Shown: positions 1 through 6,032 of the stretch, one piece after another
How positions within the stretch are numbered: position 1 is the first letter of the stretch
How the letters are laid out: each line of letters begins with the position of its first letter
Assembly (NCBI GenBank): GCA_903916665.1
Contig: CAIWXP010000100.1
Coordinates: 1-6,063, forward strand
DNA length: 6,063 bases
Origin: Candidatus Iainarchaeum sp.
GTDB taxonomy: Archaea; Iainarchaeota; Iainarchaeia; Iainarchaeales; 0-14-0-20-30-16
Reading direction: 5' to 3'
Program-made: the position numbers and the translations under genes
Notes under the pieces: model-generated
Seen by the model: the letters and a program-made list of their open reading frames with translations, nothing else
What the model was told of the DNA's origin: nothing
Database searches by the model: none

Positions 1-1929
1 AATTAAAAAGAACACCAATATCATTGATAACAAAATAAATAAATTTAAGCACAGTCCAACAATACCTAAAATAAATCCTGCCTTTGATAATGATGTTTCT
101 TTTGTTTGTTTTTGGATTATACTAAATACTAATCCTAGGCCAGACAATATAAAAGCAACATAGGGCATCAAAAATAAAAGAATTCCTAAAATTCCTAATA
201 CTAAACTAACAACACCTTTGGTTTCAGATTTATTTTGTTTACTAGAATCAATTTTTCTTTTTAAAAAGAAATAGGTTAAACCAATTGCTATAATTCCAAT
301 TAATACAGTTATAATAAATATCCATGCAGAAGTTTTTGCTGATCCTGCAGGAGTTGTTCTTTCAATAACTATTGCAAAGTAACTAAAGCTAGGTACTGTG
401 GCAGTATAAATATATCTTCCATAGGAATCTTTTGTTGGATAATATAAAGTTGGTAATGATACCCATTCATTGGTTGTTTCATTATAATGAAGTAACTTAG
501 TTCCTAAAGGTTCTTTGCCAGTTGTAAAATCAAAAACAATTTTTGTATAATAGGGTAATGCGCCATCATCAAAGGGGGCTTTATTTTCAACTTTCAAATA
601 GGATTGAATATCATATTTATCACTTGAAGGTGCGCTCAAAGGAACTCTTGGAACCGCATAGTCAGGATTACCAACAATACCTTTTCCTCCTAAAAGTGGT
701 ACTGCTTTGTTTAGATTAACTTCATCTATTGTTGTTATTTCTAAACCCATATTTTGTAAAGATTTTGCAGCAGTAACAACAACATTTTGTACTATTGATG
801 TGTTTGGAAAATCTACACTTACAGTTTCATTTTGATTTGCATTTATTTTTGCTTTATAATATTTTATATAATCTACAATTTGATCTGCTGTTAAATTTTT
901 ATTTCCAGATAATACATTTTCTAATTCATTATATATTTCACTATCCTTTACACTGGCTTCGTCAACAGAAATATGTTGAATAGGATTTTGGTTTTGAGAA
1001 TCAATTTGATTAAATGGATTATTATTTGTTTGTTGGCCTGTTGTTTGATTAGTATTTTGATTTACATTTTGCTGTGTTTGTTGTTGATTATTACTAACTT
1101 CAGCCTGTTGTTTTTCTTCATATTGTTTATCTAATATATCTTGATAAACATGAAATGCAGCATTTGATGCACGACTTAGTTCTTGTTCTGCTAATAATAT
1201 ATCAAACCATTTTTGACATCCTGCAATACCTGCATCAAGGCATTTTGACAAATTACCTGTACCTTCTGGAATAATTCCTGCATTTTGACATCCAAATCCA
1301 CATTCATCAGATGGGTAATATCCCGAACTATCTTTTGCAGATAATTCTGAATCTAATTCTTTAATTCTATCTTGATATTCTTGCTGTATATTAGAACACC
1401 CAGATTCGCCGTTATTAGCAATCAAACAATCCAAATAATTTTTATAAAATTCTTGTGCTTCAGTAATTGCAAATTGTGCTTTTACTTTGTTTACTTCACC
1501 ATCACAATTTCCTCCATCAGCCATTAAATTTTTTAAATAACAACAATCGCTTTCTAAACCATATTGTCCAGGATCTTTACAAATTGATTCTATAGTTGGA
1601 CCATTAAATTCATTACTAGATTGATTTTGTTTTTTAGCTAAAGCATCTTTACAAGCTTGAGAATCTCTTGCTCCACTATTATCTGCACCTGGAGTGCCAC
1701 AACATTCTTGTGGATAGCCTTGAGAAATACATTGAGTATAAACATCATTACTTCCTGAATTAGAGATTGCATGGCAAGAACAATCTGGCCATTGAACTGT
1801 ATTTGTTCCACATCCTTGATTACAATTAAAAGATAAATTAGTATCAACAGCAGAAACAAATGATGCTAAAAATATAGTTAAAACAGAAATAATAAAAATA
1901 AAAAATAAGATTATAAATTCCCTTTTCAT
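1..1929 (-). CDS. Partial CDS (C-terminus beyond window start): secreted, membrane-anchored Cys-rich surface protein, paralog of 1926..3425. Carries a PGF-pre-PGF-like beta domain, a TM anchor and DUF4190-like TM hairpins
   Basis: Not in the ORF track. Manual reverse-complement translation from ATG at 1929..1927 gives 643 sense codons with no stop down to position 1. N-terminus MKREFIILFFIFIISVLTIFLASFVSA|VD is a signal peptide. aa 36-93 (nt 1651-1824), CNQGCGTNTVQWPDCSCHAISNSGSNDVYTQCISQGYPQECCGTPGADNSGARDSQAC, aligns with the upstream protein. Q/N-rich linker at aa ~273-318. ...LLHYNETTNEWVSLPTLYYPTKDSYGRYIYTATVPSFSYFAIV resembles the archaeal PGF-pre-PGF domain ending (..W..L.T....Y.Y.A.TPGFS.FAI). 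TM helix AWIFIITVLIGIIAIGLTYFFL followed by KRK, then G-rich TM hairpins (VVSLVLGILGILLFLMPYVAFILSGLGLVFSII...GFILGIVGLCLNLFILLSMI). GGTAAT SD-like motif (1940..1935) lies 5 nt upstream of the ATG. Confidence 0.85.
   Translation of the reverse strand, partial: MKREFIILFFIFIISVLTIFLASFVSAVDTNLSFNCNQGCGTNTVQWPDCSCHAISNSGSNDVYTQCISQGYPQECCGTPGADNSGARDSQACKDALAKKQNQSSNEFNGPTIESICKDPGQYGLESDCCYLKNLMADGGNCDGEVNKVKAQFAITEAQEFYKNYLDCLIANNGESGCSNIQQEYQDRIKELDSELSAKDSSGYYPSDECGFGCQNAGIIPEGTGNLSKCLDAGIAGCQKWFDILLAEQELSRASNAAFHVYQDILDKQYEEKQQAEVSNNQQQTQQNVNQNTNQTTGQQTNNNPFNQIDSQNQNPIQHISVDEASVKDSEIYNELENVLSGNKNLTADQIVDYIKYYKAKINANQNETVSVDFPNTSIVQNVVVTAAKSLQNMGLEITTIDEVNLNKAVPLLGGKGIVGNPDYAVPRVPLSAPSSDKYDIQSYLKVENKAPFDDGALPYYTKIVFDFTTGKEPLGTKLLHYNETTNEWVSLPTLYYPTKDSYGRYIYTATVPSFSYFAIVIERTTPAGSAKTSAWIFIITVLIGIIAIGLTYFFLKRKIDSSKQNKSETKGVVSLVLGILGILLFLMPYVAFILSGLGLVFSIIQKQTKETSLSKAGFILGIVGLCLNLFILLSMILVFFLI
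976..1113 (-). repeat. Low-complexity Q/N-rich coding linker in the downstream paralog
   Basis: aa ~273-318: KQQAEVSNNQQQTQQNVNQNTNQTTGQQTNNNPFNQIDSQNQNPIQ. Occupies the same architectural position as the linker in the upstream paralog. Confidence 0.7.
1656..1705. repeat. Copy 1 of a 50-nt near-identical segment shared by the two paralogous genes
   Basis: Plus strand cttgagaatctcttgctCcactattatctgcacctggAgtGccacaacat matches 3134-3183 at 47/50 positions. Encodes CCGTPGADNSGARDSQ on the minus strand. Confidence 0.85.
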
Positions 1930-3425
1930 TTTTTATTACCTTTCTTATTATAAAATTTATATACTAATCCTGCAACAACCGCAACTATTATTATAACCAA
2001 TAAAACATACCAGCCAGCATTACTTGATGATGTATTTGAATTATTCCCATCATCAAAACCACTTGCTAAAGAATTAAATTGTTCTTGAGATAGAGTACTT
2101 ACTTTTGTTGTACCCTCTTTAGTTACAATTAATGTATTTCCAGCGTCTAAATCTATAACACTGCCTGCCAAAGGAGTAATCTCTAATTTACCTTCATTTA
2201 AATCAATTTCAGAAACATTTGTATCAGAATTATAGCCAAAAACAAATTCTGTTCCCCTTACTGCTAAAACTGCATTTAATGATCTAAATTTTATTGTTCT
2301 ACCTTCTATTTGTTTCATAATAAAAGCTTTTATTGAGCCTGTATTTAATTTCAATCCTGTTTCTGGATTATGAATTTCAAATGATGAATTTGAACCAATA
2401 CTAATAACACTGCCGTCCATCAAAGTTATTTGTATCTTTCCATTTGAACCAGTTTCAATAACATCTCCTTCACTAAGTAAAGAATCCTTTCCAAATACTT
2501 TTGCTTTACCATCTGCACCAATTAATTTTACTTCGCCATTAAAAGAATATACTGCTCCTGTTTTTGGTTTAAAAAAACTATCTGAATTATTAGTGGTTGC
2601 ATTAGTGTTATCTTTATTACTATTAGCAGTAGTTGTATTTGTATTTTGTCCATTAGTTGTATTTGCCTGTGTTGTTTGATCATTATTTTGGTTAGCTGCA
2701 TTTTGTTGTGCAATTTGATCATTTATTTGTTTTTGAGTTGCTGCTTGTTGAGTTGTTTGCCAATCATTTTGAGCATCTTCTTGAGCATTATACAATGCTT
2801 GAATTTTATCACTTAATGGTTTTTTTGCAGCATCACATTGTGCTCTACAACCTGGTTTATCTCCTCCGTTTGCAGCAGTAACAAACCCAGACCAACAATT
2901 ACATATTTGTCCAACAGTTGTTGAATTTTCTCCTTGATTTAAAACTGCTAATTTTTCTTGATAGGGACCTAATACATCTTGATAAATTTGTAAACAATTA
3001 GTTCCTTTTGTGCTTAAACATGAATAATAAGAATTATAAAAAGTTTGTACTTCTGGATCAGAATAGGTTCTATTAGTAGCTGCTGGCTCTGATTGTATTT
3101 CGTTAGACATTGCATTAAAATCTCTAGCACATTCTTGAGAATCTCTTGCTGCACTATTATCTGCACCTGGTGTTCCACAACATGATGCGGGCATACCCAT
3201 TTGTATACACTGAGTATAAACATTATCTGTATTTGGTTCATCTAAAGCATGACAAGTACAGTCTGGCCATTGAATTGTATTTGCAGAACAGGTTTTATTT
3301 TGGGCATTACAAGTAGTAAATCCAGCATTTACTGTGGGAACATTTAACAATAAAAATAACCCTAAAGTAAATAATACAAAAATCAAAAGAATAGTTTTTT
3401 TAACAAAAGCCATTATAATCACCAT
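1926..3425 (-). CDS. Type-I membrane-anchored surface protein: signal peptide, Cys-rich ectodomain, Q/N/T-rich linker, FecR-type domain, C-terminal TM anchor
   Basis: 499-aa ORF in the track. Signal peptide ...TILLIFVLFTLGLFLLLNVPTVNA|GF. Cys-rich module at aa 39-99 (nt 3129-3311). Low-complexity linker at aa ~216-283. aa ~288-420, GAVYSFNGEVKLIGADGKAKVFGKDSLLSEGDVIETGSNGKIQITLMDGSVISIGSNSSFEI...LNTGSIKAFI...FRSLNAVLAVRGTEFVF...IDLNEGKLEI, matches the FecR (PF04773-type) pattern (GD.i.Tg..g.a.l.l.dGS.i.l..nS.l.i ... G ... V.t..a...VRGT.F.v). C-terminal TM WYVLLVIIIVAVVAGLVY followed by basic tail KFYNKKGNKK. An alternative start at ATG 3413 (MAFVKK...) is preceded by a perfect GGTGAT (3423..3418) with a 4-nt spacer, so the true start may be 3413. 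Confidence 0.9.
   Translation of the reverse strand: MVIIMAFVKKTILLIFVLFTLGLFLLLNVPTVNAGFTTCNAQNKTCSANTIQWPDCTCHALDEPNTDNVYTQCIQMGMPASCCGTPGADNSAARDSQECARDFNAMSNEIQSEPAATNRTYSDPEVQTFYNSYYSCLSTKGTNCLQIYQDVLGPYQEKLAVLNQGENSTTVGQICNCWSGFVTAANGGDKPGCRAQCDAAKKPLSDKIQALYNAQEDAQNDWQTTQQAATQKQINDQIAQQNAANQNNDQTTQANTTNGQNTNTTTANSNKDNTNATTNNSDSFFKPKTGAVYSFNGEVKLIGADGKAKVFGKDSLLSEGDVIETGSNGKIQITLMDGSVISIGSNSSFEIHNPETGLKLNTGSIKAFIMKQIEGRTIKFRSLNAVLAVRGTEFVFGYNSDTNVSEIDLNEGKLEITPLAGSVIDLDAGNTLIVTKEGTTKVSTLSQEQFNSLASGFDDGNNSNTSSSNAGWYVLLVIIIVAVVAGLVYKFYNKKGNKK
2577..2780 (-). repeat. Low-complexity Q/N/T-rich coding linker (CAA/AAT/ACA-rich) in the FecR-domain protein
   Basis: aa ~216-283: EDAQNDWQTTQQAATQKQINDQIAQQNAANQNNDQTTQANTTNGQNTNTTTANSNKDNTNATTNNSDS. 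Contains N-x-S/T sequons (NTT twice, NAT, NNS). Confidence 0.7.
3134..3183. repeat. Copy 2 of the 50-nt near-identical segment
   Basis: Plus strand cttgagaatctcttgctGcactattatctgcacctggTgtTccacaacat. Encodes CCGTPGADNSAARDSQ on the minus strand. A second conserved patch is gcatgRcaagWacaRtctggccattgaaYtgtatttg at ~1768-1805 versus ~3247-3284 (QWPDCxCHA region). Confidence 0.85.
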
Positions 3426-3443
3426 ATGTTAGATATTATTTCA

Positions 3444-3451
3444 ATTTAAAT
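3444..3451 (-). promoter_or_regulatory. TATA-like box for the two-gene Cys-rich surface-protein operon
   Basis: Palindromic ATTTAAAT lies 19-26 nt upstream of ATG 3425 on the minus strand, preceded by purine-rich AAAAGATAA (BRE-like position). Confidence 0.35.
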
Positions 3452-3483
3452 AATTATCTTTTCTTAAAAATCAAAATTAAATC

Positions 3484-3501
3484 AGAATTTTTTGAAATTC
3501 T
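3484..3501. promoter_or_regulatory. Inverted repeat AGAATTT-tttg-AAATTCT in the divergent promoter region (possible operator)
   Basis: 7-bp perfect arms (3484-3490 / 3495-3501) with a 4-nt spacer, ending 1 nt upstream of the 3503-3510 TATA-like box. Overlaps an imperfect tandem 11-mer: AATCAAAATTA (3469-3479) / AATCAGAATTT (3480-3490). Confidence 0.25.
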
Positions 3502-3502
3502 A

Positions 3503-3510
3503 TTTTTAAA
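3503..3510 (+). promoter_or_regulatory. TATA-like box for the methyltransferase-fold/GNAT/uL11-like gene string
   Basis: TTTTTAAA sits at -29..-22 relative to ATG 3532, with no SD-like motif. A second TATA-like run (TTATATATA, 3521-3529) abuts the ATG, which makes the assignment ambiguous in this AT-rich DNA. Confidence 0.4.
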
Positions 3511-3531
3511 TGTATATTCCTTATATATACT

Positions 3532-4260
3532 ATGGCAACAATAAAACCAAGAGAATTAAGAAAAATTGAAAGAATAAAACCTAGTGGCGACATTAGAGAT
3601 ATAATTGAACGAGATCATAGAGAATCTCGATGGACTAGATTAGGAACTGTTAATAGATTTAAAGAAATATTTATTGATGATTTGGATTTAAAACCCATAA
3701 TAAATTTGTTAAAATTAAGAAAGAAAAACCCAAATGTTTTATTTTTGGGTGCAGGTCAAGGAGACGACATAGTAACATTAAATCATTTATTATCTTTTGC
3801 AAAACTCGAACCTAATTATGATGTTTTAAGCGTTACTAAAAAATTATCTCGGGAAGCTAGGGCAATAGTTAGAAAAGATTTATCGGGTAATTTTGCTTTA
3901 GAAAATGTAATCGCAGATCCTGAAAAATATGTAGAACTAATATCACAAATAAAAGGAAAGTATGATTTAATTATGGCATCATTAAGTATTGGTATTTATA
4001 CTAATTGGCCAGATAGAAATGCATTTGCAACTGCTTTAATGTTGGGGCCAGAAGGAGAGGCCTATATTACCGTTGATTCCACTGGAATTAATCAAAATCC
4101 TAGATTTGGTTTTGAAAACATTAAAAGATTTATTGAATTGGCAAAAAGAGCATATAACAAAAAAAATAAAACTAATTTGAACTTTGAAGTAACTCTAATT
4201 CCTGAAACTAATACAACTATTGTTGGTACATATTACATTTGTATTAAAAGAACCGCTTAA
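3532..4260 (+). CDS. Hypothetical protein with a class-I (Rossmann-fold) SAM-dependent methyltransferase-like core
   Basis: 242-aa ORF. Motif I-like VLFLGAGQGDD (aa 69-79, nt 3736-3768) resembles hh(D/E)hGxGxG. A later YDLIMASLSIG resembles the fDlIvs...l strand of motif III/IV. The usual acidic residue after beta-2 is not obvious (YDVLSVTKK), so catalytic competence is uncertain. The charged N-terminal ~60 aa has no recognisable motif. A TATA-like box sits at -29..-22. Confidence 0.75.
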   Translation: MATIKPRELRKIERIKPSGDIRDIIERDHRESRWTRLGTVNRFKEIFIDDLDLKPIINLLKLRKKNPNVLFLGAGQGDDIVTLNHLLSFAKLEPNYDVLSVTKKLSREARAIVRKDLSGNFALENVIADPEKYVELISQIKGKYDLIMASLSIGIYTNWPDRNAFATALMLGPEGEAYITVDSTGINQNPRFGFENIKRFIELAKRAYNKKNKTNLNFEVTLIPETNTTIVGTYYICIKRTA

Positions 4261-4305: not shown

Positions 4306-4743
4306 ATGGTGTCTAAATTACAATTAGTAAAAACTAAAGATTTTAAAGAAATTGCTAAAATATATTGTAATGAATTCTCTAAAGACCCTTATAATGAAAA
4401 GTGGACTAATTCTATTGCATTAAAGCGATTAAAAAGTTATTCTAAATTTTGTGATATGTGGAAATTAGTCTTAGATAAAGAAATAATAGGATTTTTTGTA
4501 ATGAATACCAGTAGATGGTTTCCTAAACTAGTTTGCTTTGGAGAAGAACAAGCAATAGAATCAAAATATCAAAATAAAGGCTATGGAAAATATATGCTAA
4601 ATAAATTATTTGAAATATACAAAAAGAAAGGTTATAAGTATTATATGGGCATTGTTAATGTTAAAGGCAAAGCATTAAAATTAAATAAATCTATTGGAGT
4701 AAAAACATCAAAAGAAAATATATTAATTGAAAAAATGTTATAA
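4306..4743 (+). CDS. GNAT-family N-acetyltransferase
   Basis: 145-aa ORF. Canonical acetyl-CoA-binding motif A, Q-x-x-G-x-G, is present as QNKGYG (aa 89-94, nt 4570-4587) within AIESKYQNKGYGKYMLNKLFEIYKKKGYKY (beta4-alpha3 pattern). Size is typical of single-domain GNATs. TTGAT (4296-4300) lies 5 nt upstream of the ATG. Tandem stops TAA TAG. Confidence 0.85.
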   Translation: MVSKLQLVKTKDFKEIAKIYCNEFSKDPYNEKWTNSIALKRLKSYSKFCDMWKLVLDKEIIGFFVMNTSRWFPKLVCFGEEQAIESKYQNKGYGKYMLNKLFEIYKKKGYKYYMGIVNVKGKALKLNKSIGVKTSKENILIEKML

Positions 4744-4755
4744 TAGTTGATAACT

Positions 4756-5145
4756 ATGAATATTATTTTAGAATTGCCAATTAAAAAAGATAAATTAGAT
4801 TGTGGTTCACCTTTAGGCCCTCTGTTAGCACCCTATGGTGTTAATATTAACAAAGTAGTTGATGCTTTAAACAAAATGTTAGCAGAAAATAAAATTACAA
4901 TACATTCTAAAGTTCACATTGAAATTGATTTGGAAGATAGATCTTGGAAATTTGTTGAAACTCATAAGAAAATTACTGAACAATTAAAAGAACTTTCAAA
5001 AAACGGGAAAATAAACTATTCAGATTTATTCTCTTTTGCAAAAAAATCCTTAGATAAAGATGATCTTGGAGACCTATCAAGAAAAATAAAAGATCTGGAA
5101 GGAACCTGTAAAAGTATGCATTTGGAAATTATTAAACAGATTTAA
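4756..5145 (+). CDS. Divergent, short ribosomal protein uL11 (L11)-like protein
   Basis: The track ORF starts at TTG 4747. ATG 4756 is preferred because TTGAT at 4747-4751 acts as an SD-like motif 4 nt upstream. Product MNIILELPIKKDKLDCGSPLGPLLAPYGVNINKVVDALNK...KVHIEIDLEDRSWKFVETHKKITEQLKEL...GKINYSDLFSFAKKSL...IKDLEGTCKSMHLEI aligns by eye with E. coli L11: ...[26 protein letters not shown]...[27 protein letters not shown]...GKISRAQLQEIAQTK...IEGTARSMGLVV. The conserved G-x-KSGSG-x-P loop between the two domains is missing, and the protein is ~129 aa versus ~140-165 aa for typical L11. Confidence 0.75.
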   Translation: MNIILELPIKKDKLDCGSPLGPLLAPYGVNINKVVDALNKMLAENKITIHSKVHIEIDLEDRSWKFVETHKKITEQLKELSKNGKINYSDLFSFAKKSLDKDDLGDLSRKIKDLEGTCKSMHLEIIKQI

Positions 5146-5288: not shown

Positions 5289-6011
5289 CTAACCTATTTT
5301 TTTATATTCTATTTTCAAAAATTTATTTCCTTCTTTAAACATTTTAATTTCATATAAAGCTAAAGAATGATGATTTTCAAGCATATCAAAAATAATTATA
5401 TTATCAGGAAATAATCTATTTTCTTTGTGTTTCTTTTCAAATTCTTTTTTATCAACAAAATGATAATCTCCTTCTCTGTTTTGTTCAATTAATATTCCTT
5501 CTGGATCTTCAAATAAAACAACAAATTGAGAAAAGTGTGTCAAAGGATTTTCTTTCTCAAAAGTTAAAATATTACTTACTGCAATTAATTTACCTTCCCC
5601 TTTTAAACCAGTTTCTTCAAATAATTCTCTTTTTGCACCTTCTAATACTTGTTCACCAAAATCTAATTTGGCGCCAGGCATTCCATACATATCGTAGAAT
5701 GGTTCCTTTAGTCTATGATATAGCAAATACTTATCTCCTTTTTTTACTACTAATAGCAAAGCAACAAATGGCCTTTCTCTTTTCTTTCCTGTTTTACCAT
5801 CTAAATCACTTTCATATCTTTGGCCTAAAGTAGTTAATGAATATTTTTTATCCTCATTTTTTACAACTAAACCTTCATCAATCAATTTATTTAAATGATA
5901 GGTAAATTCATTGGAAGGAACACTTTTATCAGATAAATCAGAAAAACTAGCCTGCGGATTATGTATCAATGTTTTAATTATTAATTCTTTTATTTCTTTA
6001 TCGTTTGTCAT
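5289..6011 (-). CDS. Winged-helix (ArsR/MarR-like) DNA-binding domain fused to a C-terminal Nudix hydrolase domain
   Basis: The track ORF starts at TTG 6047. I prefer ATG 6011 (MTNDKEIKELI...) because the 36 nt between them contain a consensus archaeal TATA box (TTTATATA, 6040..6033). wHTH pattern: ELIIKTLIHNPQASFSDLSDKSVPSNEFTYHLNKLIDEGLVVKNEDKKYSLTTLGQ. Nudix box (nt 5604-5675): GAKLDFGEQVLEGAKRELFEETGL fits E-x7-REUxEExGU, with the usual first Gly of G-x5-E replaced by Ala (PGAKLDFGE versus the typical PGGklEpGE). Confidence 0.85.
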   Translation of the reverse strand: MTNDKEIKELIIKTLIHNPQASFSDLSDKSVPSNEFTYHLNKLIDEGLVVKNEDKKYSLTTLGQRYESDLDGKTGKKRERPFVALLLVVKKGDKYLLYHRLKEPFYDMYGMPGAKLDFGEQVLEGAKRELFEETGLKGEGKLIAVSNILTFEKENPLTHFSQFVVLFEDPEGILIEQNREGDYHFVDKKEFEKKHKENRLFPDNIIIFDMLENHHSLALYEIKMFKEGNKFLKIEYKKIG

Positions 6012-6032
6012 ATTATTATTGGAGAGAAACAA

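Follow-up and report, generated by a model that had tools for sequence, protein, structure and literature searches.

The 6,063-nt stretch of contig CAIWXP010000100.1 analysed here (the window; about 28% GC) carries in its left half two long open reading frames (ORFs) on the minus strand, and both begin, directly after a signal peptide, with a cysteine-rich module that we call the head. The upstream ORF encodes ProtA, which is identical in sequence to a database protein, P0003 (NCBI and ENA sources; samples ERZ18626762 and ERZ27313068); the downstream ORF encodes ProtB, whose frame stays open from position 1929 through base 1. The stop codon of ProtA and the start codon of ProtB share an ATGA overlap, so the two genes are translationally coupled members of one operon, an arrangement which indicates that the proteins are co-expressed. 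The head is, as far as sequence can tell, a real, extracytoplasmic and modular domain, uncharacterised and of very narrow distribution, that is, an orphan.

Each head starts with a core of about 60 amino acids (aa) that contains eight cysteines. Their spacing is C39-x6-C46-x9-C56-x-C58-H59-x13-C73-x8-C82C83...C99 in ProtA and C36-x3-C40-x9-C50-x-C52-H53-x13-C67-x8-C76C77...C93 in ProtB, and the two cores are identical at 41 of 72 positions (57%, E 1e-24; BLASTP with compositional adjustment). The initial annotation, which had first described this module, was accurate with regard to both ORFs, the cysteine spacings and the invariant strings; its limits, 3311 and 1651, correspond to the first cysteine of ProtA (C39) and the eighth cysteine of ProtB (C93). 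Three strings, QWPDC.CH, VY.QCI and CCGTPG.DNS.ARDS..C, are invariant in ProtA, ProtB and a third family member, P0002 (see below), and the family can be defined by the signature C-x3-6-C-x9-C-x-C-H-x13/14-C-x7/8-CC-GTPG-x-DNS-x-ARDS-x2-C following a signal peptide. The only cysteine-histidine motif in ProtA or ProtB is CxCH; neither protein contains CxxC or CxxCH.

At the DNA level, the two cores form three colinear direct repeats with a constant offset of 1478 nt and 89-91% identity. Within the 48 core residues compared, 35 are identical, and the same codon is used at 26 of these 35, against 22.0 expected from the codon usage of the window (P=0.08). Codon sharing is thus not above expectation, and the core owes its conservation to selection and not to a recent gene conversion. 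Synonymous core sites are about as diverged as the codon bias permits, while the protein sequence is held, as is characteristic of an old duplication under purifying selection.

The family is extremely small, with only one other member known in approximately 15 billion public proteins. An exhaustive HMMER search with a profile of the ProtA and ProtB heads against 1.84 billion representatives of 50%-identity clusters (E <=1e-3) returned P0001 and P0002 only, and no other protein with the family signature; for a core of about 60 aa compared with 1.8e9 sequences, relatives scoring under about 40 bits would miss this E-value limit. When 5.8 billion proteins were searched by word index, with the ProtA head, the ProtB head and a three-sequence profile as queries, P0001 was the only one found. 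Scans for related loci in GTDB genomes, JGI metagenomes and IMG/VR produced no match, nor did tblastn searches of phage and plasmid records. A degenerate DNA motif for WPDCxCH...CCG had eight matches in JGI metagenomes, all of them chance matches with in-frame stops.

P0001, from a second sample (ENA ERZ27313068 k141_202975, contig L001), is chimeric: it has 159 aa and consists of a fragment of ProtA and an unrelated tail. Its contig is 99.9% identical to window positions 3914..3017 and diverges at its own positions 899-997; the divergence, which falls within the head domain, probably stems from a chimeric assembly or from a breakpoint between strains. P0002, in contrast to this fragment, is an independent relative. 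It has 505 aa, is encoded on a 2275-nt ENA contig (ERZ27297570) from a third sample, and shares 49% identity with ProtA along 195 aa (E 3e-58), an alignment that includes every one of the 14 cysteines. The last 80 aa of P0002, on the other hand, resemble ProtB and not ProtA (31%, E 1e-5). P0002 thus combines an A-type head with a B-type C-terminus, and the head is a shuffled module that is joined to different membrane-proximal parts. The flanks of the P0002 gene are like those of ProtA, with a divergent gene upstream and a same-strand gene (a 67-aa fragment) 3 nt past its stop codon; this suggests that the tandem arrangement is kept in a second organism.

Beyond the core, the similarity of the heads continues at a lower level. 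The segment FY..Y..CL...C..I..YQD, in which a downstream similarity had been noticed earlier, is indeed shared, if weakly: in Smith-Waterman comparisons z is 4.1 for ProtA and ProtB (a score reached by 1 of 500 shuffled sequences) and 4.5 for P0002 and ProtB (0 of 500). Each head ends with a four-cysteine cluster, C-x-C-x15-C-x3-C in ProtA and C-x3-C-x15-C-x7-C in ProtB; the clusters agree in the number of cysteines and in the central x15, and their residue-level alignment lacks statistical support. The estimate in the initial annotation of about 14 aligned cysteines therefore holds for 10, which align robustly between ProtA and ProtB, and is plausible for the remaining four. ProtB also has the reported additional four-cysteine insert; with z values of 0.1-2.0 against the core, an origin of this insert by internal duplication was rejected.

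Cysteines are almost confined to the heads. In ProtA, 14 of the 165 head residues are cysteines and there is none elsewhere; in ProtB they number 18 of 213 (aa 28-240), with one elsewhere, and in the neighbouring cytoplasmic proteins cysteine makes up 0-2% of residues. The ectodomain count is always even (14 in ProtA, 18 in ProtB, 14+2 in P0002), and the lineage-specific cysteines, namely the ProtB insert and a C-x5-C pair in the C-terminal domain of P0002, come in even sets.

The extracytoplasmic placement proposed at the outset is borne out by topology. The leaders of ProtA, ProtB and P0002 are basic at first and hydrophobic thereafter, and all three end in a V-x-A signal-peptide site; ProtA and P0002 close with a single transmembrane (TM) helix and a Lys-rich tail. 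The same is true of the claim that the head is mounted on different C-terminal modules. In ProtA, aa 321-414 match the FecR family (PF04773) over profile positions 1-96 of 97, scoring 39.7 bits (cutoff 24; E 6.9e-10), and the NCBIfam models of Lsa33, LipL45 and the LapA retention module match this region below threshold. ProtA does not qualify as an anti-sigma regulator of the FecR type (PRK09774, 17.8 vs 385 bits): in those regulators a cytoplasmic anti-sigma domain and a TM helix precede the periplasmic FecR domain, whereas ProtA lacks the anti-sigma N-terminal domain and has instead a signal peptide and the Cys-rich head, and the one TM helix that it possesses comes after the FecR domain. 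The likeness to FecR proteins, including Lsa33 and LipL45 of Leptospira (45 vs 420 bits), is restricted to this membrane-proximal domain and does not involve the head.

In ProtB, aa 478-521 match the last 40 positions of the PGF-pre-PGF model (TIGR04213) with 20.9 bits against a cutoff of 28 (E 2.8e-4). This segment sits directly before the TM anchor, as in archaeal surface proteins of the PGF-CTERM type; unlike those proteins, ProtB is below the cutoff, and its tail (...PAGSAKTSAW-TM-KRK) has no PGF tripeptide before the TM helix, so that ProtB does not belong to PGF-CTERM proteins as defined. The likeness again lies outside the Cys-rich head, and P0002 has no TIGR04213 match. TM-like segments of ProtB are found at aa 529-558, 568-606 and 613-643. 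Past the first of them and the KRK stop-transfer signal, at least two more TM helices follow up to the contig end, and this region has a weak match to DUF4190 (17.5 vs 35 bits); unlike ProtA and P0002, ProtB is not a simple single-anchor protein. The features of the locus are collected in Table 1.

Table 1. Features of the window, grouped by gene.
Feature	Positions	Strand	Description
ProtA	1926..3425	-	ORF of 499 aa; in order, signal peptide, Cys-rich head, stalk (helical, N/Q/T-rich), FecR-like domain, TM anchor at the C-terminus and tail rich in KK
ProtA signal peptide, aa 1-34	3324..3425	-	predicted cleavage between VNA and G; hydrophobic segment 1-36; V-x-A site also in ProtB and P0002
ProtA 8-Cys core, aa 39-99	3129..3311	-	aligned with ProtB core (57% identity)
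ProtA head extension, aa 100-200	2826..3128	-	helical hairpin with 2 Cys, then CxC...CxxxC cluster
ProtA stalk, aa 201-289	2559..2825	-	predicted helix passing into low-complexity N/Q/T-rich linker; N16 Q14 T14 of 71 residues
ProtA FecR-like beta domain, aa 290-419	2169..2558	-	Pfam match at aa 321-414
ProtA TM anchor, aa 472-490	1956..2012	-	hydropathy segment 465-494, then YKFYNKKGNKK
ATGA overlap, ProtA stop and ProtB start	1926..1929	-	junction sequence AATAAAAAATGAAAAGG
ProtB	1..1929	-	truncated at the contig end, 643 aa or more; in order, signal peptide, Cys-rich head that includes an insert, stalk rich in Q/N, unassigned C-terminal domain, TM, at least 2 further TM helices
ProtB 8-Cys core, aa 36-93	1651..1824	-	BLASTP, Cys spacing, DNA repeats
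ProtB head extension, aa 94-240	1210..1650	-	4-Cys insert, helical-hairpin motif, 4-Cys cluster
ProtB 4-Cys insert, aa 117-142	1504..1581	-	within head extension
ProtB PGF-pre-PGF-like domain end, aa 478-521	367..498	-	common to P0002 C-terminus
ProtB TM region, aa 533-643	1..333	-	weak DUF4190 match
242-aa ORF	3532..4260	+	divergent from ProtA
RimI-like GNAT acetyltransferase	4306..4743		
L11-like protein	4756..5145	+	129 aa; alternative TTG start at 4747
Winged-helix and NUDIX fusion	5289..6014	-	winged-helix N-terminal, NUDIX hydrolase domain (PF00293) over cutoff

We favour, with moderate confidence, the reading that ProtA and ProtB are co-expressed type I surface proteins in which a disulfide-stabilised distal head displays a putative binding surface. 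Cleavage of the signal peptide would leave the N-terminal Cys-rich domain furthest from the membrane, in an N-out, C-terminally anchored protein. The head, made of the eight-cysteine core and a predicted helical extension of about 100-150 aa with 6-10 more cysteines, would stand on a helical and then flexible N/Q/T-rich stalk, with the beta-rich module (FecR-like in ProtA, PGF-pre-PGF-like in ProtB) below it and the TM anchor below that. The cysteines would most likely pair as intradomain disulfides that rigidify a small scaffold, and this scaffold may show an invariant aromatic and polar surface (QWPD, VY.Q and GTPG.DNS.ARDS), a putative site for an external ligand such as a glycan or protein that another cell or surface presents. 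Adhesion or attachment to a host, the role proposed in the initial annotation, is hypothetical.

Surface proteins that are specific to their lineage, lack sequence homologues and combine a signal peptide with a TM helix at the C-terminus are known from cultivated DPANN archaea (bioRxiv 10.1101/2023.10.27.564410). ProtA and ProtB are similar to the surface proteins of Nanobdella aerobiophila in having a leader, extracellular modules, a C-terminal TM anchor and homology limited to a narrow lineage, and differ from them in the distal module, which is Cys-rich, apparently helical and without a family match, as opposed to the Ig-like, lectin-like and pectin-lyase-like folds of the Nanobdella proteins (10.1101/2023.10.27.564410).

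The best-surviving alternative is that the head belongs to a described fold or family from which it has diverged too far for sequence methods to tell, so that only the sequence family is new; we regard this as possible, if somewhat doubtful. The comparisons made with known families speak against it. Hidden Markov model (HMM) searches of Pfam-A (E <=5) and NCBIfam (E <=10) gave no match for the head of ProtA or for P0002, and only noise for that of ProtB (for example, Ig_TgrO1, 19.2 vs 27.9 bits); searches of PDB sequences with phmmer and with a profile were likewise negative, in agreement with the earlier remark that its motif set was not recognisable as any named family. A structural model of the head (AlphaFold, AF2) has a mean predicted local distance difference test score (pLDDT) of 65, with about 56-72 in the core. 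It is mostly alpha-helical, with one small two-stranded hairpin; helices span model residues 90-104 and 110-133 (pLDDT 74-89), which form a hairpin, and 157-182, which belong to the stalk. Foldseek searches of PDB and BFVD with this model found nothing at E <0.45. Cystine-knot proteins are small beta-rich domains held by three disulfides in a ring-threaded topology, and the Cys-knot-like fold that had been suggested for the head finds no support in the single, mostly helical model.

A resemblance in pattern exists to several small extracellular domains that likewise pack eight cysteines, a CC and a CxC among them, into about 60 aa and probably form four disulfides, such as the plant eight-cysteine motif (8CM) of non-specific lipid transfer proteins (nsLTP), hevein, hydrophobins and CFEM domains, of which 8CM is helical. 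The order of cysteines is nonetheless different, as is their spacing: C-C-CxC-C-CC-C in the head and C-C-CC-CxC-C-C in 8CM; there is no HMM match, and the taxa are unrelated, so that this is a resemblance of pattern, not homology.

A rather unlikely alternative is that ProtA and ProtB are structural envelope proteins, associated with an S-layer or anchoring it, and that the head mediates self-assembly or heterodimerisation of ProtA with ProtB and does not bind another organism. Tandem, translationally coupled genes that share the same head would suit such a role, as would the C-terminal TM anchor and the PGF-pre-PGF-like end, both typical of archaeal envelope proteins, and the same-strand gene that likewise follows P0002 at 3 nt. 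However, neither Pfam nor NCBIfam yields a match to an S-layer family, and the organism is rare in its samples, where it is represented by short contigs only. The very narrow distribution of the family would also be unusual for a core part of the envelope, although archaeal S-layer proteins diverge quickly.

Still less likely, in our view, is the interpretation of the head as a metal or cofactor module, with cysteine and histidine ligands to, for example, Zn, Cu or Fe-S, serving extracellular redox chemistry or metal capture. The invariant His59 directly after CxC and the clustering of cysteine pairs (C-x-C-H, CC, CxC...CxxxC) are compatible with it, and the source habitat may be anoxic, which would disfavour disulfides. 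Yet the invariant histidine is the only one, the CxxC and CxxCH motifs are missing, and Pfam has no CCG/HdrB, ferredoxin, cytochrome or metallothionein-type match even at E <=5. The strictly even cysteine counts, and their gain in even numbers, fit disulfide pairing better than metal ligation. Two specific cofactor-binding domains were considered and rejected. The HdrB-type CCG domain (PF02754; C-x31-39-CC-x35-36-C-x2-C) is cytoplasmic and binds Fe-S, whereas the head has the spacing C-x8-CCG-x14-C, lacks CxxC and a Pfam match, and is preceded by a signal peptide; a haem site of a c-type cytochrome is ruled out because there is no CxxCH in ProtA or ProtB. Finally, an artefactual similarity, produced by chance, by low-complexity sequence or by non-functional sequence that underwent gene conversion recently, which AT-rich DNA, strong codon bias and the high DNA identity of the most conserved blocks might bring to mind, has a negligible probability and is effectively refuted by the compositionally adjusted BLASTP match, by the length of the ORFs at this GC content, by an independent homologue from another sample with 49-51% identity, and by the codon-sharing test.

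The preferred reading of the proteins as carriers of a disulfide-braced, surface-displayed head has evidence to contend with as well. The AF2 model is of moderate to low confidence, and in an anoxic habitat extracellular disulfides would be less certain. N-glycosylation sequons are not enriched over composition (10 vs 8.3 expected, and 8 vs 6.5), the matches to adhesin-like families (Lsa33, LapA) are far under their cutoffs, and with three full-length sequences from two organisms the conservation statistics are thin.

The right half of the window contains four genes. The 242-aa ORF has no match in Pfam or NCBIfam; its string LFLGAGQGDD looks like motif I of S-adenosylmethionine-dependent methyltransferases, a likeness judged by eye only. 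Its exact sequence is absent from the records, and its 5' part is carried by contig L001. The gene of the RimI-like GNAT acetyltransferase is followed after 3-12 nt, depending on the start codon, by that of the very divergent L11-like protein, which aligns over its full length with ribosomal protein L11 and scores far under the cutoffs of the L11 models (TIGR01632, 33 vs 141.85 bits; PF03946, 29.9 vs 32.9). It may be an L11 that has diverged to an extreme degree, or else a paralog that arose from L11, and identical copies are found on short contigs in at least four other ENA samples. The last gene encodes an N-terminal winged-helix fused to a NUDIX hydrolase domain; the best matches of the winged-helix part are archaeal (DUF7347, HVO_0163 and helix-turn-helix of the Sso10a type), every one of them sub-threshold. 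Genomes scanned with this NUDIX protein yielded no match. A search of the window for tRNA genes found none.

The boxes TTTAAAT, TTTTTAAAT and TTTATATA are located about 20-30 nt upstream of the ATG codons of ProtA, the 242-aa ORF and the NUDIX gene (in 3426-3531 and upstream of 6014), and these three starts have no Shine-Dalgarno motif. The arrangement resembles archaeal TATA boxes and leaderless mRNAs, which at 28% GC is weak evidence. Taken with the winged-helix matches, the PGF-pre-PGF-like segment, the layout of the TM anchor and the low GC content, these boxes make an archaeal origin of the DNA fairly likely, although each of the signs is weak in AT-rich DNA, and a DPANN-like host may be suggested. 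Exact protein matches place the source organism in several ENA samples, which belong to two series; its abundance there is low, and every contig is shorter than 1 kb. The boldest form of the proposal would have the head, as a previously unseen fold, form the host-recognition tip, binding a glycan or an S-layer, of a co-expressed and possibly heterodimeric pair in an episymbiotic archaeon of DPANN type, and be exchanged as a cassette among stalk and anchor modules; as a whole this seems improbable to us.

Uncultured lineages with small genomes commonly have orphan secreted domains, and the head is one among a great many lineage-restricted ones in metagenomic "dark matter". Nothing at this locus points to an unusual mechanism: the modular, anchored surface protein is of a known kind, and the new part is the head domain. 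At present, the finding is of value as a documented orphan family and as a case in which surface proteins have had a domain shuffled among them. If the head does serve an episymbiont for binding, it would add a small disulfide-rich scaffold to those already described, and would be a concrete candidate for partner recognition by ultrasmall archaea, in which few of the molecules involved are known.

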